This document shows, one piece after another, positions 1 through 15,601 of a stretch of 64,000 nt of DNA. The translations under genes and the position numbers were made by a program. Origin of the DNA: Thermoplasmata archaeon. GTDB lineage: Archaea; Thermoplasmatota; Thermoplasmata; Thermoplasmatales; Thermoplasmataceae. The notes beneath the pieces are model-generated. The model had not been told where the DNA came from. It saw only the letters and a program-made list of their open reading frames with translations, and ran no database searches. Position 1 is the stretch's first letter; each line of letters starts with the position of its first letter. The DNA lies in NCBI GenBank assembly GCA_021797555.1, contig JAJZZM010000015.1, positions 2,110 through 66,109 of the forward strand. Reading direction: 5' to 3'.

Positions 1-725
1 TTAAATTTTATTTGTACAACAGGGTCATCTGGATTTTTTTTAATATTCTTTTGTATTAATTTTTTCATATTTTCATTTTTGGTGGCAGTGTATAAACGTT
101 TACTCTCATCCTTTAATTTACCATATACCTTTACTATGGTTCCTGTGGAATTATAATTTGAAAATGCACGTATAACAATAACTTGCATATCCTCTATTTT
201 CTTATTTTCATTATGATAATAATATAATAAATCATTTGCATAAATTATTTTATTACGAATGCTAATTGATATGCACGGCTCATTATTAATGTCCCATGCT
301 CTAAAATCAATTATTAAATTAACACAAAAATTATTGGTACTATTATTTATTTTATACTTTTTCTCTAAATCTAATAATTCCCAATTATATTTTGATTTAA
401 TATACGAAACGATATATTCAGCAATAGACATATTATCAATATCACCGCTTAGCTGCCTTATATTTTTCAGAGATTGATATGATTCGTCCTTCCACAACTC
501 CTCAAGCAAACCCGGAATATTAGGTATATTGAAATCAGATACTAAAAGATCTTTTTCTTTATTCCAGCCGAAAATATTGTTATTAAACATTTTATTAAGC
601 CCATATTTTAATTTACCACCAAGCTGTTTTACATTGTATGATGTTGACTCTATTTTATAAATAAACAATTTTGGCATTTTGCTTTTATTTATTGAAAAAA
701 ACTCTGTTTTTATGGTATTGTTCAT
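1..725 (-). CDS. hypothetical protein, 5' part only (gene continues past the left window edge)
   Basis: Manual reverse translation from the ATG at 725-723 stays open for 241 codons down to position 3 (MNNTIKTEFFSINKSKMPKLFIYKIES...KNPDDPVVQIKF). It is missing from the ORF track only because no stop lies inside the window. No diagnostic motif recognised. Confidence 0.55.
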   Translation of the reverse strand, partial: MNNTIKTEFFSINKSKMPKLFIYKIESTSYNVKQLGGKLKYGLNKMFNNNIFGWNKEKDLLVSDFNIPNIPGLLEELWKDESYQSLKNIRQLSGDIDNMSIAEYIVSYIKSKYNWELLDLEKKYKINNSTNNFCVNLIIDFRAWDINNEPCISISIRNKIIYANDLLYYYHNENKKIEDMQVIVIRAFSNYNSTGTIVKVYGKLKDESKRLYTATKNENMKKLIQKNIKKNPDDPVVQIKF

Positions 726-1429
726 ATTAGCTTATTTATTTTGTAAATAAATTATTTTCCATATTAATAATAGAAAATTAAAAATAATCATAATTTAAGA
801 TTTTATGTTTAAATATATTTCTCTGAATAAAAAGATTTTTATTAATTAATAAGTCAGTAAATCCTGAAAATATATAAAATGCTGCTAAAGTTATAATTAT
901 GTAACATGTAAAATAAATAATATTTCTATTAATAAGTTTTTGTCAATATTTATATAATTGTGTTGTCCCATTATTATTTCCTTTATATACTTTATAAATT
1001 TATATGATTTCATTTTACCACCATTTTAGATTTGTGGCCATAGAAGGTGTAATCATATTATAACCATCTGGAAATGAATCATGTATTTTTTCATAAATTT
1101 GTATAGCACTGCCACACTGTAAAATATGGCTTTAATGACCTAATGGCAATATTTTAAATATTATTCTTTATATATTATTATATTTATTTTCTCATCAGTT
1201 TTCATTTTAGATTTACATTCTTTTTATTATATTGTTACTTGGTATATGGCAAATATTTACGGGATATCATAATCACCATTCTAAATATATTTTTATAATT
1301 AATCCTTTTAAGGTAAATATTAATACTGAAAAATAATTAAACAGTTAATAAAAATAATAATATTATCATTTTATATTTATTATAATTATAAAATAAAAAA
1401 TTTTAAATGCATGAAAGCATTAACACATC

Positions 1430-1972
1430 ATGGAAAACCTCAATGACCTATTGTATATATTAATATATGCGAGGGGGAAATCACTGAAGGATAATGAAGC
1501 CATACCAACAAAAATACACCTTCAAAAGGAAATATTTCTTCTTCAAAGGCGATACCCTTTCACTGAATTAAACCATAAATATAATTTTATACCCTTATAT
1601 TACGGACCATTCTCCAAAGAAGTTGCAATAGACCTCAATAAAGGAATAGATTCGGGGTTAATATCATGTAGTAATGGAATATTGCTTACACCTAATGGTT
1701 TCAAATATGCATCTGAAATATGGAATTCATTTAACGAGGATTACAGGAAAATAGCAATACAAATTAAGGATGAATTTAATAGAATGGATACTGAACAATT
1801 AATAAATTATGTATATGATCATTATCCCAAATTTGCAAAGAAATCCGCATTAAAAAAGGAAAATGTGGATAATTATTTTAATACCTTCTGGACTGAAAAT
1901 CAATTATCAGATGATTATTTTGTTGAAATTGTGCGTAAAAGCAGGGAGAACAGTGCTGAAAATAGTTATTGA
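1430..1972 (+). CDS. DUF4065/Panacea-domain (SocA-like) putative antitoxin
   Basis: 180-aa ORF. The N-terminal half shows the pattern I associate with DUF4065/Panacea antitoxin domains (TKIHLQKEIFLLQ ... FIPLYYGPFSKEV). Its 3' end overlaps the GTG start of the downstream PIN gene. Confidence 0.5.
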   Translation: MENLNDLLYILIYARGKSLKDNEAIPTKIHLQKEIFLLQRRYPFTELNHKYNFIPLYYGPFSKEVAIDLNKGIDSGLISCSNGILLTPNGFKYASEIWNSFNEDYRKIAIQIKDEFNRMDTEQLINYVYDHYPKFAKKSALKKENVDNYFNTFWTENQLSDDYFVEIVRKSRENSAENSY

Positions 1973-2429
1973 CACTAATGTTATACTTGCTATGTTGTAT
2001 AGCCATAAATCCACCAATATAAGTCCTTCAAGGAAGATATACGATTTATTAATATCAGATCAGCTTGATGCATACTGGTGTGACATATTTTCTGGAGAAA
2101 CTGTTCGAATAGCAAACACTGATCCAAAATTAAGCAAAGTTAAAGGGCCTTATTTTAATTCAAGATTTGAAGAACTGTTAAATCACATGAATGATGTTAA
2201 AATGGATTATGTAAATAAATTTAAGTCATCATTAAACTGGGACCCTAGGGATGTATATAAAATAAATGAAAATGATATTTATCTGGCTATACTTGCGTCT
2301 ATCACCAAATCTAAATATATAATAACTAATGATAAGGAATTTATTGATGCGTTTAATAATACATTTGAAAATAGAACTTCACTGGCATGCAATCCTCTTA
2401 AATTTATTTCCATTGAAAAACTCTTTTAA
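1953..2429 (+). CDS. PIN-domain protein (putative toxin ribonuclease)
   Basis: VLKIVIDTNVILAML at the N-terminus and NDIYLAILASITKSKYIITNDKEF near the C-terminus match the PIN acidic-residue layout. I prefer the in-frame GTG at 1953 over the track's ATG at 1863, which would overlap the upstream gene by 110 nt. Confidence 0.6.
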   Translation: MLKIVIDTNVILAMLYSHKSTNISPSRKIYDLLISDQLDAYWCDIFSGETVRIANTDPKLSKVKGPYFNSRFEELLNHMNDVKMDYVNKFKSSLNWDPRDVYKINENDIYLAILASITKSKYIITNDKEFIDAFNNTFENRTSLACNPLKFISIEKLF

Positions 2430-2736
2430 TAGAATATTAATGGTTCTTATTTGTGATTTAAAAACATTTAATAAAGCCCACTGAATAAGCTATTAACTTT
2501 TATTTTTTTTAATAAAATGTATGTATTTACCATTTTCATATTCTAAATTTACATACCTTGTACTTATCTTCATTTCTTTAGCTAGTACTGTTGATCATCT
2601 TCTTTTATTCTTTTCCCTTATTACATATTTTATTTTCTTATTGTTTAACTTCATTCATTATATTTTTACTGGGTATTTATAGGAAATATTTATGGGACAA
2701 TATAATATATTAATCTTATAGAAAAATTTATATAAT

Positions 2737-3663
2737 ATGCACTTATATATATATATTATGAAACAAAGATTCATAATAATTATATCTGTAATAGTTTCAT
2801 TATTGTTTATTATGATGGCATTTTCAGGAAATATTGATAATAAAAGTAATAATATTATCAATAATGATGCATCAAATAATAATTATATTAAGATAGGTAA
2901 TATTACATTTATGAACAATTTTAATATATCAAATAATGGTATATCATTTAATAATATTAATAAAACAAACATTAACGATATAAACAATTATAATAATATT
3001 TATTTAAGCAATGGAAATAACAATAAAACAATATTCAATGCATATAAAGGTAATATAATATATAAAAATAATATTAATTATACATTATTGTATTTTAAAA
3101 ACACTGATGTTAAAAATGCAATAACATTTACAGAGAAATTTAAGAATTACAAGGTTGAGATAGCAGATATAATATATAATAATTCTAACAATGATAATAT
3201 TTCATATATCTATGCTAATATTGTACCAATAAATTCATCCAAAATATTATTGGGAAATGAATTTACATTGAATTATAAATCTACATATAATAATGAGATA
3301 AAAAACTTAATAAATAGTATAGAATTAATATCATTGAATTATATGAATTCTAACAATAATACATTATATAAATTCGGTATGGAATATTCATATATAGCAT
3401 TAGCAATGAACAATATGTTAAAATTAACAAATAATAATATTAAAAATATGGAAATAAACAAAACATTAGGAATCGCAATAGATGCTAATTATGGATGCAT
3501 TTTTGCTTTAGTTGGTGGTTTTCTTTCCGGTTCTCTTGCTATAGCAACATTAGTTAGTGTTTTATTGGCAACAGGTCCTGTTGGCTGGCTTGTAGGTGCA
3601 ATATTGGTGGGTTCCTATATAGCTTTTGGGGTTTCGTTGGGCGGTATAATTTTTAGCTGTTGA
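2737..3663 (+). CDS. secreted/surface Asn-rich protein with conserved pre-tail segment and C-terminal Cys-X53-Cys hydrophobic hairpin (candidate polymorphic toxin)
   Basis: 308-aa ORF, with a more likely start at the second Met, 2758 (MKQRFIIIISVIVSLLFIMMAF, signal/anchor-like). About 200 aa are Asn-rich with roughly ten N-x-S/T sequons. The tail is GCIFALVGGFLSGSLAIATLVSVLLATGPVGWLVGAILVGSYIAFGVSLGGIIFSC. Confidence 0.7.
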   Translation: MHLYIYIMKQRFIIIISVIVSLLFIMMAFSGNIDNKSNNIINNDASNNNYIKIGNITFMNNFNISNNGISFNNINKTNINDINNYNNIYLSNGNNNKTIFNAYKGNIIYKNNINYTLLYFKNTDVKNAITFTEKFKNYKVEIADIIYNNSNNDNISYIYANIVPINSSKILLGNEFTLNYKSTYNNEIKNLINSIELISLNYMNSNNNTLYKFGMEYSYIALAMNNMLKLTNNNIKNMEINKTLGIAIDANYGCIFALVGGFLSGSLAIATLVSVLLATGPVGWLVGAILVGSYIAFGVSLGGIIFSC

Positions 3664-3672
3664 GGTGATATT

Positions 3673-3876
3673 ATGTTAATAACAAAAAAGATTAGGACAA
3701 TATTTTTAATTGCTGGCGAAGTTTTTTTTTCGTATACATTATTTTATTTATTATATTTTTTTGAGATATATAACAAAATAACATTTTTATATTTATCAAT
3801 AATTATTTTATTTTTTATAATAGTATTACCAATATTTTATATTATTGATAATAAAAATAAACATTTACCACAATAA
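3673..3876 (+). CDS. small two-helix membrane protein (candidate cognate immunity protein)
   Basis: 67-aa ORF starting 9 nt after the upstream stop, behind GGTGA (3664-3668). It has two hydrophobic helices and basic termini. Confidence 0.55.
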   Translation: MLITKKIRTIFLIAGEVFFSYTLFYLLYFFEIYNKITFLYLSIIILFFIIVLPIFYIIDNKNKHLPQ

Positions 3877-3887
3877 TATACTATAAA

Positions 3888-4065
3888 TTTAATAAACAGT
3901 ATAGAATTAATATCATTGAATTATATGAATTCCAATAATAAAACAATAAATAAATTTGGTATGGAATATTTATATATAGTATTATCAATGAATAACATGC
4001 TAAAGTTAACAAATAACAATATTAAAAACATCGAAATAAATAAAACAGTAGGAGTAGCAATAGAT
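3888..4065 (+). repeat. second copy of the ~177-bp conserved pre-tail segment (first copy 3307-3483)
   Basis: Direct nucleotide comparison: ttaataaa(t/c)agtatagaattaatatcattgaattatatgaattc... is shared, and similarity ends right after gcaatagat in both copies. Confidence 0.85.
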
Positions 4066-4251
4066 AATAAATGGAATTGTATTATAAATATAATTGGTTT
4101 TGTTTTCGTAGATCTTCTTACCATAGCAGCCGCGGCAGGTATAACCATAGGCACAGATGGAATTGGAATATTTGCAGTTATTTGGTTATTATCATGGTTT
4201 GCATATTCCACATTTGGTGTGTATAGTGTTGCAACAGCATGCGGGTGGTGA
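3916..4251 (+). CDS. orphan tail module: conserved pre-tail segment + divergent Cys-X53-Cys hydrophobic hairpin, no signal or Asn-rich region
   Basis: The ORF (TTG 3916 or ATG 3925) is homologous to residues ~198-308 of 2737-3663. Its frame is open from 3877, directly after the stop of 3673-3876. The tail is NCIINIIGFVFVDLLTIAAAAGITIGTDGIGIFAVIWLLSWFAYSTFGVYSVATACGW. Confidence 0.6.
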   Translation: MNYMNSNNKTINKFGMEYLYIVLSMNNMLKLTNNNIKNIEINKTVGVAIDNKWNCIINIIGFVFVDLLTIAAAAGITIGTDGIGIFAVIWLLSWFAYSTFGVYSVATACGW

Positions 4252-4252
4252 A

Positions 4253-4465
4253 ATGCATATAGATATAAATAAACAATTAATGAAATTAAAAAAAAGCATA
4301 ATTTTATTATTGCTAGCTGAGGCATTTCAATTAGTATTCATTTATATACCAAATTTCATGGTAAACAATATCTATAAAATTGCCACTTTCCTATCCTTTG
4401 GCATAATTGTCCTTATTGTATATTCATATTTTAATGAAAAAAGCAGGATAATAAATCATAATTAA
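4253..4465 (+). CDS. small two-helix membrane protein (candidate immunity protein of the orphan module)
   Basis: The ATG at 4253 lies 1 nt after the upstream stop (4249-4251), behind GGTGGTGA. The 70-aa product MHIDINKQLMKLKKSIILLLLAEAFQLVFIY... has the same layout as 3673-3876. The track ORF 4157-4465 includes a 5' extension overlapping the upstream gene. Confidence 0.5.
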   Translation: MHIDINKQLMKLKKSIILLLLAEAFQLVFIYIPNFMVNNIYKIATFLSFGIIVLIVYSYFNEKSRIINHN

Positions 4466-4629: not shown

Positions 4630-5817
4630 TTATAATCTAACATTTGCTTTATAGGAATATGAATCATTTAATTTTTTTATTGACATGCCGGTTATTATTA
4701 CAGATATAAGGCATAATAATGTTGTTATATCTATTATCAGTAACAAAAAATGATATCCTGTATAATTGCCTATAAATCCCAGCAGAACTGAAATTACACC
4801 GCCGAACAATGCACCGAAATTATAGGAAAATCCGGAAATTATACCACGTACCTCGGGATTTATGCGGTCCATTAAAAGCAGTGGCGGTATGGTCATTGAT
4901 GATATGCCGGCACTGAATAATATAAAACCTTCCAGCTCAAAAGGCCTCAATAGGATTAAAAACGGCATTGCAAACCATGCAAATAATGCCGTTAATAATG
5001 CTCCAGCAATTATAAGCGTTCTCTTCCTTATTATCAGTGCAAGCCTTCCAAATAATATAAACGATACTGATACTGTTATGCTTGATAATATCATCATTAA
5101 TCCAACAATTCCATCAGGAATCCCGAAGGTTGGTGCCAGTGTGGGATAAAATGAGAATATAGAAAATGAGGCGGCAAAATAACTGGACATAATAACAGTT
5201 GATTTTATAAGTGGTATTTTATATTTATTTATGCTTACCTTTTTTCTCACAATTTCTATTTTATCCCTGGGAACCTTTAATATTGCATATGGAACAATAA
5301 TTAATGGAATTGAACCGGTAATTAAAAAATATCTCCAGTTAACGGCCATGGTCGGCAAAAACAGCAAATATGCTACGCCGGTTAATGCATATCCGATACC
5401 ATAACCGCTCTGAATTATGCCGAATACCGTGCTTCTTATACTAACCGGTGAGAACTCATAGCCAAGTACAGTTCCTGATGTCCATTCGCCGCCCATGAAA
5501 ATGCCCTGGATAAACCTTGCAATAAACAGTATAAAAATATCAGGTGAAAATGCCATGATTCCATTAAATATGGCATAGCCTGCTGTGCTAATTACCATTA
5601 TATTTTTTGCACCGTTGCGGTTTGTCATTTTTCCAAGATATAGGCCTCCAAAAAATCTGCCCATTAGGCCTAAAGAAAATAACAATGATACAGCACCGAG
5701 ACCTATGTTATATGATTTTTCAAGTTCAACATATATGTATGTAACTATTGTCAAATCGTATATGTTGCCTATCCATGAACCTGTGGAAGAAAACATTGCA
5801 TGAATATAGCCTTTCAT
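4630..5817 (-). CDS. MFS-type transporter
   Basis: 395-aa polytopic membrane protein with roughly 12 hydrophobic segments and an MFS motif-A-like GGLYLGKMTNRNGAKN after TM2. Confidence 0.7.
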   Translation of the reverse strand: MKGYIHAMFSSTGSWIGNIYDLTIVTYIYVELEKSYNIGLGAVSLLFSLGLMGRFFGGLYLGKMTNRNGAKNIMVISTAGYAIFNGIMAFSPDIFILFIARFIQGIFMGGEWTSGTVLGYEFSPVSIRSTVFGIIQSGYGIGYALTGVAYLLFLPTMAVNWRYFLITGSIPLIIVPYAILKVPRDKIEIVRKKVSINKYKIPLIKSTVIMSSYFAASFSIFSFYPTLAPTFGIPDGIVGLMMILSSITVSVSFILFGRLALIIRKRTLIIAGALLTALFAWFAMPFLILLRPFELEGFILFSAGISSMTIPPLLLMDRINPEVRGIISGFSYNFGALFGGVISVLLGFIGNYTGYHFLLLIIDITTLLCLISVIITGMSIKKLNDSYSYKANVRL

Positions 5818-5977: not shown

Positions 5978-6508
5978 ATGTTGCTTGGAAGGGAGTACGA
6001 ATTACAATTTTTGGAGAATATATACAAAAGAAATAATGACAATATCATAATTATATACAGTAAAAGAAGAACAGGGAAAACATTCCTTTTAAATGAATTC
6101 TCAAGGAATAAGCCAAGTATATATTTTCTTGCATTAAATGAAAGCAAAAGAGAATTGATCAAAAAATTTTCAATCAAATTATCCGATTTTTACCATGATG
6201 ATTTAATGGCGCCTTTTACCTCATGGGATGCTGCCTTTGAATATTTAATTCAAAAAACCATGAAAAACAGAAAAAAATTGCTTGTAATTATTGAGGAAAT
6301 AACAAATATAACATCATCGGATAAATTGTTTTTATCTGCATTATGGAAATATTATGATTTATACCTAAGGAAAAATAATATAATGATTATATTAACCGGG
6401 TCATACATAGATACAATGTCAAATAATATACTATCATATTCCTCACCTTTATACGGAAAAAGGACCGAAAAAATAAAATTAGAGGAACTTAAATTTTATG
6501 ATGTATAA
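5978..6508 (+). pseudogene. truncated archaeal ATPase (Arch_ATPase/DUF234 family), N-terminal 176 aa only
   Basis: LGREYELQFLENIYKRNNDNIIIIYSKRRTGKTFLLNEF parallels the full-length paralogue at 25941-27347 (FINRKYELKFMDD...IIIYGRRRIGKTMLIKKF). It retains Walker A and the LLVIIEE Walker B but stops at about one third of full length. Confidence 0.6.
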
Positions 6509-6806
6509 ATCGGAGCTATAAGATATATGCCAATAAATTGTAATAATTTCATATTTTGAAAGAATGTAAAATATAAAAATATTCCAAGAAAAACCAATGC
6601 CGGGGTTAAATAAAACGTTATGGAACCTTTAATGTGCGCCTTATTTTTCATAAAATTTTAATAATTTTATTATATTTAAAAGTTTTTATTATATTCATTT
6701 AATAATTGATATAACAATTAATGTTTTAGATTAAAAAACTAATAACTTTATAAGATATTCAACTGATTTATAGATAACTTAATATTTAGGTATATAATTT
6801 AATTTT

Positions 6807-7043
6807 ATGGTAAATTTAATGGTTGAAATGGAAAAAAATGGTAAAATATACATTCCAAAGGAAATAAGGGAAAAATATGGAAAAAAATTTTTTATAATTC
6901 CATATGAGGGCAAAATCATACTCTATGATATTCCAGAAAATCCAGTAAAGGATTTGATGAAACTTGGAGAAAAGTTAAGGGATATACCCATTGAAAAATT
7001 AAAAAATGATATAAATGAAGAGGCTTACCATGACATACGCTGA
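6807..7043 (+). CDS. vapB: AbrB/SpoVT-fold antitoxin (VapB-like)
   Basis: GKIYIPKEIREKYGKKFFIIPYEGKIILY is a typical looped-hinge-helix motif. The gene overlaps the downstream PIN gene. Confidence 0.65.
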   Translation: MVNLMVEMEKNGKIYIPKEIREKYGKKFFIIPYEGKIILYDIPENPVKDLMKLGEKLRDIPIEKLKNDINEEAYHDIR

Positions 7044-7380
7044 TACTGACTTTTTTCTGGCAATTTTAAAAAGTTCTGATTGGTTAAAAGAAAATGCAGT
7101 TAAGATTATGAAAAATTATACAATTGAAACTTCCGAGGTAACTTATATTGAATTAATGCTGCTGGCAAAAAAATATAACCTGGATTTTATTGAAATTATA
7201 AAGGATGTTATGGCCATCTGCCATGAAAATAATAGTATATATATCATGGCCGCAGAATATATAAAAAACGGAGTTAATGTTTTCGATGCATTCCATGCAG
7301 CCCATTGCAATGGGGAAATAATCAGTTCTGACCATATTTATGACAAACTAGATATTAAAAGGATAAAATTAGAGGATTAA
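7015..7380 (+). CDS. vapC: PIN-domain toxin (VapC-like)
   Basis: MTYADTDFFLAIL..., TSEVTYIELMLL and NVFDAFHAAHC...IISSDHIY follow the PIN acidic pattern. The likely start is the ATG at 7030. Confidence 0.7.
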   Translation: MKRLTMTYADTDFFLAILKSSDWLKENAVKIMKNYTIETSEVTYIELMLLAKKYNLDFIEIIKDVMAICHENNSIYIMAAEYIKNGVNVFDAFHAAHCNGEIISSDHIYDKLDIKRIKLED

Positions 7381-8301
7381 ATTATTTTAACATATTTACC
7401 ATGTTATTATATATATTCTAAAAAATTAATTTACCATGATATAATATTTATATAAAAATCCAAATTTAAATATTAGTTGAATATAAAGTATTATACCTAT
7501 ATCTCAACAAAAATTTATTAATAAATAGTGGAAGTTTGGATACCTGTTCATATCATAAAAATTATTGAGGAAATTATAGAATAAGATCTAATTCAATAAT
7601 TTGATTATAAATTATTCTTTTTCTTAAAATATACATGAGAATTATCAATATATAATTGAAAGAATATTAAGTAATTTAACAGTACTTGCAAAGGTTTTTT
7701 ATTAGTAATGCTAGAACTGAGGCCATAAAAATAGGCCATATTGTATTATTTTTATGCTGTGAGGACATGTAAATAACATCAAATTTGGGGATATTGATTC
7801 CTGTGAATTAGAAGCACCAACAAAGCCAATAATATCAAAGTGTGTATTTACGCACACGAATATAGAGAATGCATATGAATTTATGTGCATTATAAGGTAC
7901 AATAATATTATAAAAATTCAAAATTTTATATTCTTCCCAGCGCGCTAAAACATATTTGAAATCATCAATTGTTACCATTATTGTATAATATACGTACAAT
8001 TTAGACAGATCATAAATCATATTTAATCTGTTTTAATTGAATATGTATGAAATATTTGCGTAACAACATAGGTTTATAAAATTAAATAAATTATCAATAG
8101 TTAAAGATATCTGCTGGGAGCTTAAGTGAATATACTATTTAGCGATAATCAATACATCTGAGGAAATAATTTGTATATAAAAGAAGTAATAATGAATCAT
8201 TATATATCTGCTTGAGTTTGCAGTTAATTATTATATAATTTCATTTTTATTTTAATTACATAAATGAAAAAGTTATTAATACTGATTATAATTTATTTCT
8301 A

Positions 8302-8685
8302 ATGTATACAGATCTGATCAGTAGCACTATTAATTACATTAAAAAACTGGACAAGCAAAATAGGATAAAATTTATTGTTAATTATGGTTCCTATGCAAAC
8401 GGCACATTCCATAATGGTTCTGATATTGATTTGTGCATTTATTATGATGGAAACCAGGGGGAACGAAACAAATTTAGATTAAATGTGCTCTCAGAAATAA
8501 ATGATATTTTTGATGTGCACATATTTCAGGATCTGCCACTTTATATAAGATTCAGTGTTTTGAAGGGAAAAATACTCTATTATAAAGATAAGGATATATA
8601 TGACATTTTTAGATTAACAATAGAGGAATATGAGGATTATAAACGCGGATATTATGATTATATAAACCTGGAGAAGATACAATGA
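8302..8685 (+). CDS. mntA: MNT-type nucleotidyltransferase antitoxin (DUF1814-unrelated minimal NTase)
   Basis: GSYANGTFHNGSDIDLCIY is the G-S...D-x-D polymerase-beta-type NTase motif. It has an ATGA overlap with the HepT start. Confidence 0.75.
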   Translation: MYTDLISSTINYIKKLDKQNRIKFIVNYGSYANGTFHNGSDIDLCIYYDGNQGERNKFRLNVLSEINDIFDVHIFQDLPLYIRFSVLKGKILYYKDKDIYDIFRLTIEEYEDYKRGYYDYINLEKIQ

Positions 8686-8753
8686 GAAATGATATAATAA
8701 GGAATAAAATAACCGAATCCAAGAAAGTTTGGAATTAATATGGGATAATTTAC
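8682..8753 (+). pseudogene. hepT: HepT (HEPN/DUF86) toxin, 5' fragment, interrupted by an IS and apparently frameshifted
   Basis: The ATG at 8682 gives MRNDIIRNKI, then the frame dies at 8736. The +2 frame, open from 8708, reads NRIQESLELIWDNL up to the TTAC at 8750-8753. Confidence 0.65.
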
Positions 8754-8967
8754 AAATCAACATACCAGAAAGAAAGCCACTGAGTTTACGATGTGGATGA
8801 ATTTCCGGAAATAAGGAAATTAAATATTTAATAAATAATTATCAATTTGAATGTTTTCATAATTTATGAATGATGTGATTTTTAAAATGATGATAAATTA
8901 TATATTTTTAGAATAAATACAATAAATAATAATATTTATATAATATTATAATATTTAAAATAAATCA

Positions 8968-10333
8968 TTGATTAACATGATTGATACATCAGAAGAGAAA
9001 AAGAATAAAATAAAAGATTCATTGAATAAAACAAAAGAAAAAAGGAAATCACAGGAAATAGCAATTATCAAAACAAAGCTCGATTATGATAAATTAAATA
9101 AAAATACATTAAAAATATTAAATAGAATATTCTTGGAGGCTAAATGGCTATACAATTATATAATAAATAAGGAATTCAACAATGATATTTTTAATATAGA
9201 TTATAAAATAAATGAAGTACCAGTGTATGTAAAGGACCATTATGAAACAAGGAAATTAAAATATATATCATCACAGATGAAGGAGGAAATAATGGACCGT
9301 GCAATAGACAATATAAAAGGATTGCATGAATTAAAGATAAAAGGATTTAAAATTGGATCACTTAAATACAAATCTAAAGTAACATCAATACCATTGAAAC
9401 AGTATGATATTACATATAAAATAATAAACAATAAATATATTAAAATACAGGGTATAAAACAGAAATTAATGGTAAATGGATTGGATAATCTGTAATACTA
9501 TTTTGAACCATCAAATGCATTGTTAACCAATAAAAACAACAATTATTATATCTACATAACAGCATATAAAAATAAATACATTTTAGATAAGCCGATAAAT
9601 AATCAAAAAATAGTATCTATTGATTTAGGAATTAAGAATCAATTAACATTGTCAAATGGTCTTATACTAAACTACAATATACCAAAATCTAAAAGAGAGA
9701 AAAGATTGCAGAGAAGATTATCTAAAAAGGTTAAGAACTCAAACAATTACAGGAAATTAAACAATAAACTAAATATAGAGCAAACTAAAACAGTTAATAA
9801 GAGAAGGGATACTATTAGTAAAATAGTCCATTATATATCAACAGATTATAATATAATAATAACACAGAAAGACAATATAAGAGGATGGAAGCATCTCTTT
9901 GGAAAAAGAATAGAATCAACAAATATAGGTGGAATAATAGAGGCACTTAAACATAAGGCTTCAACATTTATATTATTGGACAGATTTATTCCAACAACTA
10001 AAGAATGCTCAAAATGCCATAACAGGTATGATATAAAATTAGATGAGAGAATCATACAAATGCCCTAATTGTGGTTTTATTATAAACAGGGATTATAATT
10101 CTACATTAAATGACATATATTATGGAATTATAGAATTGAATAAGAAATTAATAATTAAGAATAGAAAATTAAATAATTATTTTAAGGAATATAATATAAA
10201 TATGAAAATACCTGCGGAGCGCTTAAGGGAATATACGCCTGTGGAGATTGATGCCCCTGCCCTGGAAGGATTAAGTCCGCATGTAAGGGTAAGCATGGTC
10301 GATGAATCAGGAAGCCTCTATGCCTTGGCATGA
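8968..10333 (+). pseudogene. tnpB: tnpB (RuvC-like RNA-guided nuclease family), disrupted
   Basis: Three track ORFs make up the gene. The first two share a frame and are separated by an in-frame TAA (9493-9495). The third is reached by a frameshift around 10046-10058. Motifs seen: VSIDLGIKN (RuvC I) and a zinc ribbon CSKCHN...YKCPNCGFIINRDYNSTLN. Confidence 0.75.
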
Positions 10334-12586: not shown

Positions 12587-15500
12587 ATGCCAGATTATTC
12601 TGATATAAATATAATGCACGGAACATGCAAATTTGAAAACAATAGCCTATTTTTTGTAATATGGGTTGAGGGTAATAAAAAAACTGTAAGAAAAAAAGAA
12701 TTTTATCCATATTGTGGAAATCCCGCATTACTGAAACCTGATATCGAAGATATTATACCAGATGCTATATTTGATTATAAAACAACAGAAGTAAGCATCC
12801 CCTCATTTGGAAATAATCCATTGATATCAGACGAACTATCCGGCCTGGTGGAAATAAAAAGCGATAATAACGATACATTAACAATGAAAAAATGGAAAAT
12901 CAATGCAATTTATATTTCAATACCGTCTGCAATTAAATTGCTTTTACACATAAAAAACAGTAGCAAAAAGATGGGTCTGGTTTTTGGCTCGGATATAAAA
13001 TTCTGGATTTCCGTGTCAGAACTAATATTGGATTTAATGAAAAACGAAAAATTTATCCCCGGAATAGTTGAGGAAAACAGCAGCATCAGGTCAAAATGGA
13101 TGCCATTATTGGAAACATCGGATGAACAGGAAATTATATACAATTTATCACAAAATATGCCTGAGGCCTGCCTTATGATGAATTACGGCTATACGGACAG
13201 GGAATCATTATTAAGGTCATTCATCAATACTGCTGTGGATATGCTTGCAAGGGAATTTAGCGGCAATATTAATAAAATTAATTCAAGGAATTATGGTGAT
13301 ATATATAAATGGGTTGATTCACTTTCAAATGATAATAATCTAATATCATACAGCAGAAGCCTTGCTGTAATGAAAATAAATGAATGGACGCAGAAGATAT
13401 ACAAGCGTACCGAATCGCCTCTGAAAATGGGCTTCAGGATATATCCTCCGGAAAATGATGAAACAGACTGGAAACTGGAAATAATAATACAAAATAAATA
13501 TGACCCGGATTTTATTGCACAGCTTGGAGAGATAATGAACCGCAAAAGCAAAGCAGCCACTCTTATTAGGAAATTTACGGAATTTCCGGAGGAATTTGTT
13601 CTTGAGTCCATGGGCATTGCGTCAATGATTTTCCTACCATTGAAGAGATGGTATAAGGAATCGTTTCCGTCCATTATTTATTTATCCGCAGAAGAGGCAT
13701 ACAATATGCTCAAGGAATATGGCAATGCACTGATTGATTCAGGATTTGCATTTATTTTTCCTGAATGGTGGAACAAAAACAGAAATCCGGCATTAAAAAT
13801 TAATGTCAAAAATGAAAATGGCACTGGCGTATTAAATTCACAAACGCTTTTAAGATATAACCTTGATATTGACATTGATGGAGAAACCATATCAGAGGAA
13901 GAACTAAAGAAACTTTTAAACATGAAAATACCCTTGATAAAAATTTCAGGAAAATGGGTGGAAATAACATCAAAACAGATAAAAAGCATATTAAAAGCGA
14001 TAGAAAAAGGTAAAAACGGTGTAACCCTTCCTGAACTGCTTTCACTGGATATAGATAAGGATTCACTGCCTGTAAAGGAAATAATAGGTGACAAAAAAAT
14101 AATGGATTTAGTAAATCTCAACATAAAAAACGTCATTGTACCGTCATCGCTTCATGCCGAATTGCGTGATTATCAGAAAACCGGGTTGTCATGGCTTGCA
14201 AATACTGTGGGAACCGGATTTGGATGCTGCCTTGCAGATGATATGGGCCTTGGGAAAACCATAGAGGTAATTTCCTATATATTAAGCAGGAAAGAAAATA
14301 ATAATTCAAATGGAACAACATTGATAATATGTCCAACATCTGTAATTACAAACTGGGATCATGAAATAAAAAGATTTGCACCGGAATTAAATGTTCTTAT
14401 GCATCATGGCAGCAGAAGGGAAAAGGAAGAGGCTTTAATTTCCAGCATTCATAATTTTGATGTGGTTTTAACCTCATATTCCATTGCAACAAGGGATTAT
14501 TCTACACTGATAAATGTAAACTGGGATGGCATAATAATAGACGAGGCACAGTACATAAAAAACAGGTGGACAAAACAGAGCAATGCAATAAAATCATTTA
14601 AAAGCAATTACAGAATAGCCCTTACCGGCACTCCAATAGAAAACCGCCTGGATGAATTGTGGTCCATATTTGATTTCATAAATCCAGGATATCTAGGCCC
14701 GCAGAAAAAATTCAGGGAGAATTTTGAAATACCTGTTGAGAAGGGGAATGATAAGCATGCATTAAATGTATTATCAAGGCTGGCAAGGCCATTTATACTG
14801 AGGCGTCTTAAAAGCGATAAAAAGGTTGCACCGGATTTGCCCGAGAAAAATGAGATGAAATTATATGTTCCCGTAACCAAGGAGCAGTCAATACTATATG
14901 ATAAAATTGTAAACGGGATGATGAATGCAATAGAAGATTCTGACAATATAAAAAGAAGGGGAATAGTTCTTGCCGCCATAACCAAATTAAAAAGGATTTT
15001 AGATTATCCGTCGCTGGTAACAGAAGATAAGGATATAAGCATTGACAGATCACAAAAACTCAGAAGATTGATTGATATGATCTATGAAATAAGATCAGAT
15101 AATGAAAAGGTGCTAATTTTTACACAGTATAAGGATGCAGGAAAAATATTAAAGGAGGTAATGCAAAAAGAAATGAATGAGGAGGTTTTATTTCTGAGCG
15201 GAGAATCCAGCAGAAAGCTAAGGGATACCATGGTTAACCGTTTCCAGAAAGAATCGGGTCCTGCAATATTTATTATATCATTAAGGGCAGGAGGTTTTGG
15301 CCTTAACCTTACAGCCGCAACAAATGTAATACATTTTGACAGGTGGTGGAATCCATCAGTGGAAAATCAGGCCACAGACAGGGCTTACAGAATAGGCCAG
15401 ACAAGGAATGTTAATGTTTACAAATTTATTACGTCTGGAACTGTAGAGGAAAAAATAGATGAATTAATTGAATCCAAATCCATGATCCTTGATCAGGTGG

Positions 15501-15601
15501 TCTCTTCCGGCGAGGGATGGATTACAAACCTATCCAATGATAAATTAAAGGAAATACTGGCGTTGAGAAAGGATTCAATAGAATCTTCAGAGGTGGAGTA
15601 A
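12587..15601 (+). CDS. SNF2-family helicase with a long (~520 aa) N-terminal non-helicase region
   Basis: Motif I LADDMGLGKT, motif II IIIDEAQYIKN, motif III ALTGTPIENRLDELWS and motif VI QATDRAYRIGQ. Confidence 0.9.
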   Translation: MPDYSDINIMHGTCKFENNSLFFVIWVEGNKKTVRKKEFYPYCGNPALLKPDIEDIIPDAIFDYKTTEVSIPSFGNNPLISDELSGLVEIKSDNNDTLTMKKWKINAIYISIPSAIKLLLHIKNSSKKMGLVFGSDIKFWISVSELILDLMKNEKFIPGIVEENSSIRSKWMPLLETSDEQEIIYNLSQNMPEACLMMNYGYTDRESLLRSFINTAVDMLAREFSGNINKINSRNYGDIYKWVDSLSNDNNLISYSRSLAVMKINEWTQKIYKRTESPLKMGFRIYPPENDETDWKLEIIIQNKYDPDFIAQLGEIMNRKSKAATLIRKFTEFPEEFVLESMGIASMIFLPLKRWYKESFPSIIYLSAEEAYNMLKEYGNALIDSGFAFIFPEWWNKNRNPALKINVKNENGTGVLNSQTLLRYNLDIDIDGETISEEELKKLLNMKIPLIKISGKWVEITSKQIKSILKAIEKGKNGVTLPELLSLDIDKDSLPVKEIIGDKKIMDLVNLNIKNVIVPSSLHAELRDYQKTGLSWLANTVGTGFGCCLADDMGLGKTIEVISYILSRKENNNSNGTTLIICPTSVITNWDHEIKRFAPELNVLMHHGSRREKEEALISSIHNFDVVLTSYSIATRDYSTLINVNWDGIIIDEAQYIKNRWTKQSNAIKSFKSNYRIALTGTPIENRLDELWSIFDFINPGYLGPQKKFRENFEIPVEKGNDKHALNVLSRLARPFILRRLKSDKKVAPDLPEKNEMKLYVPVTKEQSILYDKIVNGMMNAIEDSDNIKRRGIVLAAITKLKRILDYPSLVTEDKDISIDRSQKLRRLIDMIYEIRSDNEKVLIFTQYKDAGKILKEVMQKEMNEEVLFLSGESSRKLRDTMVNRFQKESGPAIFIISLRAGGFGLNLTAATNVIHFDRWWNPSVENQATDRAYRIGQTRNVNVYKFITSGTVEEKIDELIESKSMILDQVVSSGEGWITNLSNDKLKEILALRKDSIESSEVE

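Follow-up and report, generated by a model that had tools for sequence, protein, structure and literature searches.

A hypervariable membrane hairpin and its co-varying partner gene form a candidate polymorphic toxin-immunity array in Ferroplasmaceae

The DNA studied here, called the window throughout, is a stretch of 64,000 nucleotides (nt) from a Thermoplasmata archaeon (GenBank assembly GCA_021797555.1, contig JAJZZM010000015.1, positions 2,110 to 66,109 of the forward strand). Its plus strand carries four tightly packed reading frames, A1, B1, A2 and B2, for which a first-pass annotation had proposed a polymorphic-toxin-like cassette; the frames and their parts are listed in Table 1. A1 encodes a carrier joined to a hydrophobic tail, A2 is an orphan module, and both are followed by a gene for a small protein with two transmembrane (TM) helices. 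A search of 5.8 billion proteins returned 44 relatives of A1 of about 300 amino acids (aa), and those with a named source come from Ferroplasma, Acidiplasma and Thermoplasmatota bins. The A1 reading frame spans 2737-3663 and contains an alternative in-frame ATG at 2737, but because all 44 homologues begin with MKQRF, the start is likely the ATG at 2758. A TTTATATAA element is located approximately 27 nt 5' of this ATG, and with this start the A1 mRNA would be leaderless. The exact 301-aa product is annotated on ENA contigs, and one ENA metagenome contig (L024) is 100% identical to the window.

The signal-like helix, the Asn-rich stretch and the approximately ten N-x-S/T sequons that had been read from the sequence are all present. 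The helix may be cleaved after AFS. Eleven sequons were counted, nine in the ectodomain and two in the junction segment, and Asn makes up 29% of the ectodomain compared to 6.5% in six other long open reading frames (ORFs) of the window. An AlphaFold2 (AF2) model of A1, built with the family alignment, has a mean predicted local distance difference test score (pLDDT) of 69, with 75-94 in the core. It contains, in this order, a TM helix, a disordered linker, a beta domain, a helical hairpin formed by the junction segment, a strand ending at Asp, and a C-terminal helical hairpin, and an independent AF2 model of a distant relative shows the same order of elements. Neither model had a fold match in the PDB at E<1e-3, and the A1 model had none in BFVD. 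Searches of Pfam and NCBIfam gave nothing above noise for A1, B1, A2, B2, ten tail classes and the distant relatives. Pfam, NCBIfam, PDB and BFVD contain no match to the three protein families represented by carrier, tail and partner, and the architecture in which these are arranged is of a known kind. Matches to Ssp4 (E 0.2), MakA and HblD (E 0.2-1.3) were sub-threshold and reflected hydrophobic composition only, and were discarded.

Table 1. Features of the A/B array in the window
Feature	Position	Strand	Basis
A1, carrier-plus-tail gene, 301 aa	2758..3663	+	ORF; 44 homologues of ~300 aa open at MKQRF
Signal/anchor helix (MKQRFIIIISVIVSLLFIMMAFS)	2758..2826	+	helix 2-22 in AF2 model; kept in homologues
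Asn-rich, beta-rich ectodomain	2827..3303	+	beta strands with pLDDT 75-90; identity 0.6-0.88 among homologues
Junction segment, 60 aa (NLINSIEL...GIAID)	3304..3483	+	helical hairpin and strand ending at invariant Asp; repeat common to orphans
Tail 1, 59 aa	3484..3660	+	Cys at +5 and at C-terminus; Gly/Ala-rich helical hairpin without Lys/Arg
Shine-Dalgarno-like motif GAGGTGAT for B1	3662..3669	+	overlaps A1 stop codon
B1, 67 aa, two-TM partner of tail 1, candidate immunity protein	3673..3876	+	ORF; two hydrophobic helices
A2, orphan module without signal or ectodomain	3877..4251	+	junction 3886-4065 and tail 2 4066-4248
Shine-Dalgarno-like motif GGGTGGTGA for B2	4243..4251	+	formed by A2's final codons Gly-Trp-stop
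B2, 70 aa, two-TM partner of tail 2, candidate immunity protein	4253..4465	+	ORF; two hydrophobic helices

The junction segment occurs twice. Positions 3307-3483 and 3889-4065 are 88.1% identical, compared to 36% in the upstream and 42% in the downstream flanks, and the two encoded junction segments match with an E value of 3e-26 until similarity stops after AID, in agreement with the repeat and its abrupt end seen earlier by eye. Tail 1 continues after AID as ANYG-C-(53 residues)-C, and tail 2, of 61 aa, as NKWN-C-(53 residues)-C-GW. The Cys frame given for both tails by the first-pass annotation thus stands in its 53 intervening residues and in a last Cys 0 or 2 residues before the stop, but the spacer is AID-x4-Cys and not x5. 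As described before, the second copy has neither the signal helix nor the Asn-rich part: the A2 frame opens directly after the B1 stop, in the frame of B1, and its first start codons are internal (TTG at 3916, ATG at 3925), with none ahead of the conserved segment. The spacing reported for the partner genes likewise held, since B1 starts 9 nt past the A1 stop behind GAGGTGAT and B2 starts 1 nt past the A2 stop behind GGGTGGTGA, both motifs being of the GGTGA type. No significant similarity between B1 and B2 was detected.

A scan of species-representative genomes found 23 loci, located in Ferroplasmaceae bins and in Acidiplasma aeolicum, with up to five loci in one genome, and all 26 loci of the close family come from Ferroplasmaceae genomes or metagenomes. 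The sources of the homologues are also the basis on which the window is assigned to Ferroplasmaceae, whose members lack a cell wall. Mean pairwise identity, computed over 27 full-length homologues, is 0.6-0.88 in the body and junction versus 0.19-0.27 in the tail, so that the predicted hypervariability beyond AID was borne out. When module pairs with junctions at least 85% identical were compared, 57 out of 78 had tails at background identity. The variable tail is a hydrophobic helical hairpin of about 45-75 aa across the family. All 43 tails with two or more Cys carry the first of them at position +5, and exactly two Cys are present in 41 of 50 tails. The distance between the two Cys ranges from 34 to 62, therefore the Cys-X53-Cys spacing is no family rule, although the Cys bracket is conserved, and the 53-residue spacing of both window tails is a coincidence or reflects a common length class. 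Lys and Arg together account for only 0.5% of tail residues, and Gly (12.5%) and Ala (11.7%) for 24%. The GC content of the tail DNA is 39%, versus 24% in the junction and 21% in the partner genes, and a tail of this GC content between AT-rich neighbours indicates that selection keeps the Gly and Ala codons against the AT bias.

Two departures from this pattern were noticed. In one tail class (WNILYD...LWDAFPGDLK; P0016, P0020 and P0021 of Ferroplasma sp., and L019 620-967) both bracketing Cys are gone, and in its sister class (WNIWCD...LLWGCM) both are retained. Such a joint loss fits a disulfide pair, and it shows that a Cys-free variant persists in full-length genes. Furthermore, an 85% identical homologue of 225 aa (P0005) departs into unrelated sequence a few residues before AID (...NKTLGILTVAAAWYFLCLYL...), which suggests an insertion or rearrangement at a junction hotspot.

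When the range from 45 nt before to 160 nt after the tail-gene stop was searched, a small ORF with two or four helices was found behind the tail in 42 of the 44 modules of our first module set. Both termini of these partners are rich in Lys and Arg. GGTG occurs within 16 nt upstream of 19 out of 37 partner starts (51%), compared to 3.2% at random positions, and in several classes the final tail codons (FGGW-stop, CGW-stop or CNW-stop) act as the Shine-Dalgarno motif. The FGGW, GW and NW that follow the last Cys are encoded by GGAGG / GGTGGTGA / TGGTGA (window 4243-4251; L005, L006, L007, L030 and other loci). As the C-terminal motif of the tail doubles in this way as the Shine-Dalgarno motif of the partner, its conservation may partly be a translational and not a protein constraint. 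A ratio of nonsynonymous to synonymous substitutions (dN/dS) of 0.16-0.28 was obtained for tails as well as for partners when divergent pairs (dS above 1) were compared, in some of which one or both members are orphans, indicating that tails and partners are real, constrained genes. The small ORFs are conserved, with purifying selection and upstream Shine-Dalgarno motifs, as the first reading of this locus requires.

Tail type was expected to co-vary with the small neighbouring gene, and it does: all 13 module pairs with similar partners (E<=1e-6, phmmer) also have similar tails (Fisher p=4e-15). Covariation of global identities was uninformative (Spearman near 0, Mantel r 0.19) against a low-complexity TM background of about 30% identity, and single-linkage BLAST clustering over-merged the tails; phmmer E values were used in place of both. 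The same tail-and-partner class can be expressed, i.e., joined to a carrier, in one genome and orphan in another. This was found for L006_9941 versus L005_11955, for L002/L005 versus L016_776, for L007/L030 versus L006_12355, and for A1/B1 of the window versus the second module of contig L029. Tail 2, itself an orphan, has a relative in the orphan tail L018_1182 (E 3.6e-17, phmmer), and B2 resembles the N-terminal half of the partner of that tail (E 7.4e-6, phmmer).

To take a census of modules, a hidden Markov model (HMM) of the junction segment was compared with six-frame translations of all loci. This gave 54 matches in the 26 loci, all co-oriented, with the segment detected in every one of the approximately 50 modules, and near-full-length matches had E values of 1e-19 to 1e-35, thus the junction repeat is not a chance similarity. 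Orphan arrays, whose existence had been a prediction, occur widely, with 2-6 modules in 16 of the 26 loci; L006 has one full-length gene and four or five orphans, L011 has one and three, and in L018 a contig end holds four orphans. The body remnant at the 5' end of orphans varies in length from 0 to about 45 aa, a pattern known from the displaced 3' ends in contact-dependent inhibition (CDI) and Rhs loci, and the orphans lack an evident start. In three cases a degraded tail, either truncated or with Cys changed to Tyr, is followed by an intact partner (L006 13925-14317, L020 766-1026 and L005 11955-12377), as would be expected if immunity genes are retained. In L014 1082-1462 both tail and partner are truncated. 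Modules were found at the very ends of contigs of metagenome-assembled genomes in L014, L016 and L018-L023; junction repeats probably break short-read assemblies, so that array lengths and copy numbers are underestimates.

One case of cassette exchange involves the window itself. L029, from another ENA sample, aligns with window positions 1-3482 at 98.2% identity, up to the AID codon. The expressed module of L029 has a different tail (WSTLC...CTCYN) followed by a 65-aa two-TM partner; its second module consists of an orphan tail that is 97% identical at the aa level to window tail 1 and a partner gene identical to B1 in every base, and its third module is unlike A2. The window equals L029 minus the expressed tail and partner and the second junction, which is the product expected of recombination within 140-180 nt of junction homology. 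The alternative to a loss in the window is that L029 gained a cassette at the AID site. In several other pairs, dS is 0.04-0.14 in the tail and partner versus 0.35-0.43 in the adjacent junction, which points to gene conversion or cassette transfer. Junction recombination swaps which tail-partner cassette is joined to the carrier, and it has happened at the window locus; the junction segment is likely the substrate.

These data bear on two alternative explanations. If the second copy were a functionless, decaying tandem duplicate of the 3' end of A1, this could account for an orphan without a start codon ahead of the conserved segment, and some orphans are indeed degraded (Cys to Tyr, truncations, and decay of the whole module L014_1082). 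However, the orphan tail and B2 are unrelated to tail 1 and B1, hence no copy of them, and have relatives elsewhere (L018_1182); orphans are widespread, mostly intact and have a dN/dS of about 0.2, and the expressed cassette of the window is an orphan in L029. The duplicate explanation is thus contradicted and retains a minimal probability. Surface variation against viruses or other attackers, whereby silent cassettes are moved into an expression site as for pilin or mycoplasma lipoproteins, would explain the expression site, the promoter-less silent cassettes with a shared homology block and the demonstrated switching, and the host family is wall-less like mycoplasmas. Against it, conservation falls on the exposed ectodomain, and variation on a part that is predicted to lie within the membrane. 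Each cassette also has its own co-varying partner, which antigenic variation would not need. We consider this explanation highly improbable.

A profile search of 1.84 billion representative proteins recovered many short orphan-type products and ten distant full-length relatives (E 1e-11 to 1e-4). The relationship is reciprocal, as a profile made from the distant proteins alone finds the Ferroplasmaceae members with E values of 1e-23 to 1e-32. The distant relatives retain the signal helix, a sequon-rich ectodomain (in some with PKD-like repeats) and an LGDxFxLNYSS...Q...Y...P...D core. The junction Asp is invariant in them as well, followed a few residues later by a Cys in eight out of ten, and a C-terminal Cys after the hydrophobic stretch is invariant. 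Their loci have a GC content of 40-58%, and among them are one labelled Thermoplasmatales and another labelled Nitrososphaerales. In each of the six distant relatives examined there is a membrane ORF of 77-149 aa with one to four hydrophobic helices by hydropathy, and its start falls in the range from 11 nt before to 36 nt after the A stop. A gene for VKOR, which is disulfide-forming, lies 1.2 kb from one distant relative (L034 8117-8560), a single case and possibly a coincidence.

We propose that the locus encodes a polymorphic membrane-acting toxin and a membrane immunity protein of Ferroplasmaceae, and we assign this reading a probability of roughly 55%. The architecture supports it: the locus has every structural hallmark of a polymorphic toxin that could be tested, namely a carrier, a junction, a hypervariable C-terminus, a co-varying gene, orphans with stubs, and replacement, and each architectural test proposed in the first-pass annotation came out in favour. 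Toxicity of the tails and protection by the partners are inferred. Variation in both proteins resides in membrane helices, so that it must be within the membrane that specificity is read.

In the mechanism that we envisage, the carrier would be exported with its ectodomain facing outward, and the hairpin would enter the membrane and return, bringing the two Cys together outside as a disulfide. In the membrane of the producer the cognate B protein would bind the hairpin and keep it harmless. The hairpin could get to a neighbour through contact between wall-less cells, through vesicles, or after cleavage near the invariant Asp, and in a neighbour without a matching B protein it might oligomerise and leak protons or ions, which would be lethal for an organism with a large pH gradient. 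The orphan modules would serve as a reserve of alternative toxins and extra immunity genes. A more far-reaching version holds that this is a self-contained form of CDI among wall-less archaea, which uses no secretion machine, passes an uncharged, disulfide-stapled hairpin on a conserved glycoprotein stalk to touching cells directly or on vesicles, collapses the proton barrier of a neighbour that lacks the matching small membrane protein and is re-armed by recombination of stored cassettes, with carrier fold, tail and partner all new families with relatives in other archaeal lineages. This version is tentative, and we think it somewhat unlikely.

Several observations weigh against the toxin-immunity proposal. 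As for toxicity and protection, it is based on sequence and predicted structure. No sequence or fold similarity to known toxin, bacteriocin or immunity families was found in the libraries searched, and no genes for export, processing or delivery recur near the arrays, with no accessory gene present in at least four loci. The tails all follow a single structural theme, unlike the mix of unrelated toxin domains in classical polymorphic toxins. Motifs of the type small-x3-small-x3-small are not in excess in the tails (62 versus 72.5 +/- 8.6 in composition shuffles), and for this reason we call the tails Gly/Ala-rich and not proven zippers. With respect to pairing, 45 tail-similar pairs have partners without detectable similarity, thus the pairing is looser than one-to-one or the partners diverge faster, and the pairing statistic is weak on its own, since adjacent tail and partner genes share descent. 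Most loci come from metagenome bins, many at contig ends. Finally, the six distant relatives examined are all single modules without orphans, and the copy of F. acidiphilum (CP015363, FAD_1647; L030 8001-9140) is located between EF-1alpha/S10 genes and an EF-2 gene. In view of these single pairs and of the translation genes around the F. acidiphilum copy, the ancestral A/B pair may have had a housekeeping or otherwise non-antagonistic function. A distant high-GC relative (L027 6001-6831) lies approximately 3 kb downstream of an S10 gene; the position of these two copies may mark an insertion hotspot of some age, or it may be coincidental.

The single-copy pairs and the F. acidiphilum neighbourhood also fit an ordinary surface glycoprotein, with the hairpin serving only as its membrane anchor, the small protein as a structural or assembly subunit, and tail diversity resulting from relaxed drift and occasional duplication. 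The conserved ectodomain, and sequons that suggest a glycosylated surface protein, are in accordance with this. Nevertheless, purifying selection acts on the tails and partners of a given class (0.16-0.28) and yet these fall into many classes, the tails hold 24% Gly and Ala despite the strong AT bias, and the Cys bracket and junction Asp are strictly kept. Arrays of up to six modules and cassette replacement between strains would not be expected of a passive anchor either, which makes this explanation decidedly unlikely.

The main rival is recognition of self and non-self (kin), or of membrane compatibility, without killing, in which the hairpin of one cell would meet the partner of another upon contact or membrane mixing between wall-less cells, and a match or mismatch would decide on adhesion, fusion, DNA exchange or territory, as for IdsD/IdsE of Proteus. 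A hypervariable tail, a co-varying membrane partner, and a store of cassettes with switching are compatible with recognition too, the variability resides in membrane-embedded segments of both proteins, and no toxin-like domain was detected. On the other hand, immunity stockpiling is typically marked by partners that are kept behind degraded tails and by arrays with many partners, recognition would gain little from numerous silent alleles of the two components, and the locus is not linked to fusion or DNA-transfer genes. We regard this rival as unlikely.

Comparison with known systems places the locus closest in layout to polymorphic toxins, of which, in the sense of Zhang, Aravind and colleagues, archaeal examples have reportedly been surveyed by Makarova et al. 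in 2019. The resemblance to CdiA-CT/CdiI comprises a conserved exported carrier, a sharp junction (VENN in CdiA, ..AID here) followed by a hypervariable C-terminus (CT), an immunity-like gene directly downstream that tracks the tail class, orphans with homology stubs, and recombination into the expressed position. In CDI of the E. coli EC93 type, an ionophore CT acts on the membrane and CdiI is a small membrane protein. Searches of Pfam, NCBIfam and the neighbourhood found no FHA or filamentous repeats, VENN motif or CdiB transporter; in place of VENN the junction motif reads ..(A/I)(I/V)D-x4-C. In contrast to CdiA, this carrier is short, at about 240 aa, its host is a wall-less archaeon with a single membrane, and the tails follow one theme. 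Rhs/YD-repeat and WapA/LXG polymorphic toxins share with the locus a conserved N-terminus, a variable C-terminus, an adjacent immunity gene and orphan arrays, but no YD, Rhs, LXG or known toxin domain is present here according to Pfam and NCBIfam. The same libraries identified no recognised trafficking module in A1 (type V, VI or VII secretion systems (T5SS/T6SS/T7SS), Rhs or MuF), only the signal/anchor helix.

Membrane-acting toxins offer a second set of comparisons. The pore-forming colicins E1, A and Ia insert an uncharged hydrophobic helical hairpin into the target membrane, and their immunity proteins are small, with three or four TM helices, and recognise the hairpin within the membrane. 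The hairpin tails and the partners with two to four TM helices and Lys/Arg-rich termini are similar to this. The tail differs in being a hairpin of only about 60 aa with a Cys bracket, and there are no colicin-type translocation or receptor domains and no lysis gene; tails, B1 and B2 had no Pfam match to a colicin pore domain or Colicin_immun at E<=1-10. In TspA/TsaI of Staphylococcus and the T6SS effectors Ssp4, Ssp6 and Tse4, a hydrophobic polymorphic C-terminus depolarises the membrane, with multicopy polytopic immunity proteins. Unlike the locus described here, these require T7SS or T6SS machinery. Class II bacteriocins and microcins, with their short precursors that have a double-glycine leader and a C39-peptidase ABC exporter, differ as well, since the precursor here is about 300 aa with a signal-type helix, without a bacteriocin profile match or a recurrent exporter gene.

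Among archaeal protein antibiotics, halocins C8 and H4 are exported and membrane-active, and HalC8, which is the C-terminal 76 aa of a precursor of about 280 aa, contains ten Cys, and its immunity protein is the N-terminal part of that precursor. The shape of the HalC8 precursor is therefore comparable to carrier plus tail. We know of no cassette arrays described for either halocin. Halocin H4 needs its TM region for activity, and this region is internal (residues 179-194; bioRxiv 10.64898/2026.07.27.741052). No Pfam or NCBIfam relationship links the locus to halocins C8 and H4, whose described architectures differ from it. In Proteus mirabilis, the self-recognition proteins IdsD and IdsE bind allele-specifically via variable regions in membrane segments, and IdsD is delivered by a T6SS; the pair is not known to have orphan arrays and has no homology to the window locus. 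Archaeosortase signals (PGF-CTERM) consist of a single C-terminal TM helix with a motif before it and basic residues after it, in contrast to the two-helix hairpin with 0.5% Lys and Arg, and no NCBIfam match to an archaeosortase-type C-terminal sorting signal was found. The full-text literature searched, outside which the 2019 archaeal survey of Makarova et al. lay, contained no description of the family.

To our knowledge, fighting and mutual recognition among archaea are very poorly understood. Ferroplasmaceae of acid mines dominate some of the best-studied natural microbial populations, and in the literature searched neither antagonism nor recognition has been described for them. The locus is an experimentally tractable candidate, since it offers a unit of two genes with numerous allelic pairs in nature, a clear specificity determinant in the membrane and documented switching. 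If it is a true toxin-immunity system, the logic of polymorphic toxins would have evolved independently of bacterial secretion machines, wall-less cells could use delivery from membrane to membrane, and the strain structure and recombination patterns in acid-mine-drainage populations would be easier to explain. If it is instead a recognition system, it would be a candidate for controlling how Ferroplasmaceae come into contact and exchange genes. The hairpins of about 60 aa may in addition serve as membrane-active peptides.

With regard to the surroundings, an origin from mobile elements was considered and dropped, as no homologue was found on plasmids, phages, IMG/VR or JGI metagenome contigs. 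An Rfam scan of the window gave no match, and a scan for bacterial promoters and terminators returned 33 sites versus 30 expected and was thus uninformative for this AT-rich DNA of an archaeon. The array lies within an island of defence or toxin-antitoxin-type genes (window 1430-2429 and 5978-10068), which has a GC content of 22-25% compared to 30-38% elsewhere in the window. The island includes a gene for a PIN-domain protein, preceded by a partner of 180 aa, as well as an ATPase_2 gene, a VapB/VapC-like pair (6807-7380) and a nucleotidyltransferase (8302-8685), and at 8968-10068 two adjoining ORFs resemble fragments of a TnpB-type transposase. A gene for a major facilitator superfamily transporter (window 4630-5817, minus strand) adjoins the array in three loci, including L009 and L013; these cases are too few for an association and may reflect synteny among related genomes. 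Further downstream, window 12587-15601 contains a 1004-aa ORF with SNF2-helicase-like motifs (DEAQ box, RWWNP...QATDRAYRIGQ), which is unrelated to the array.

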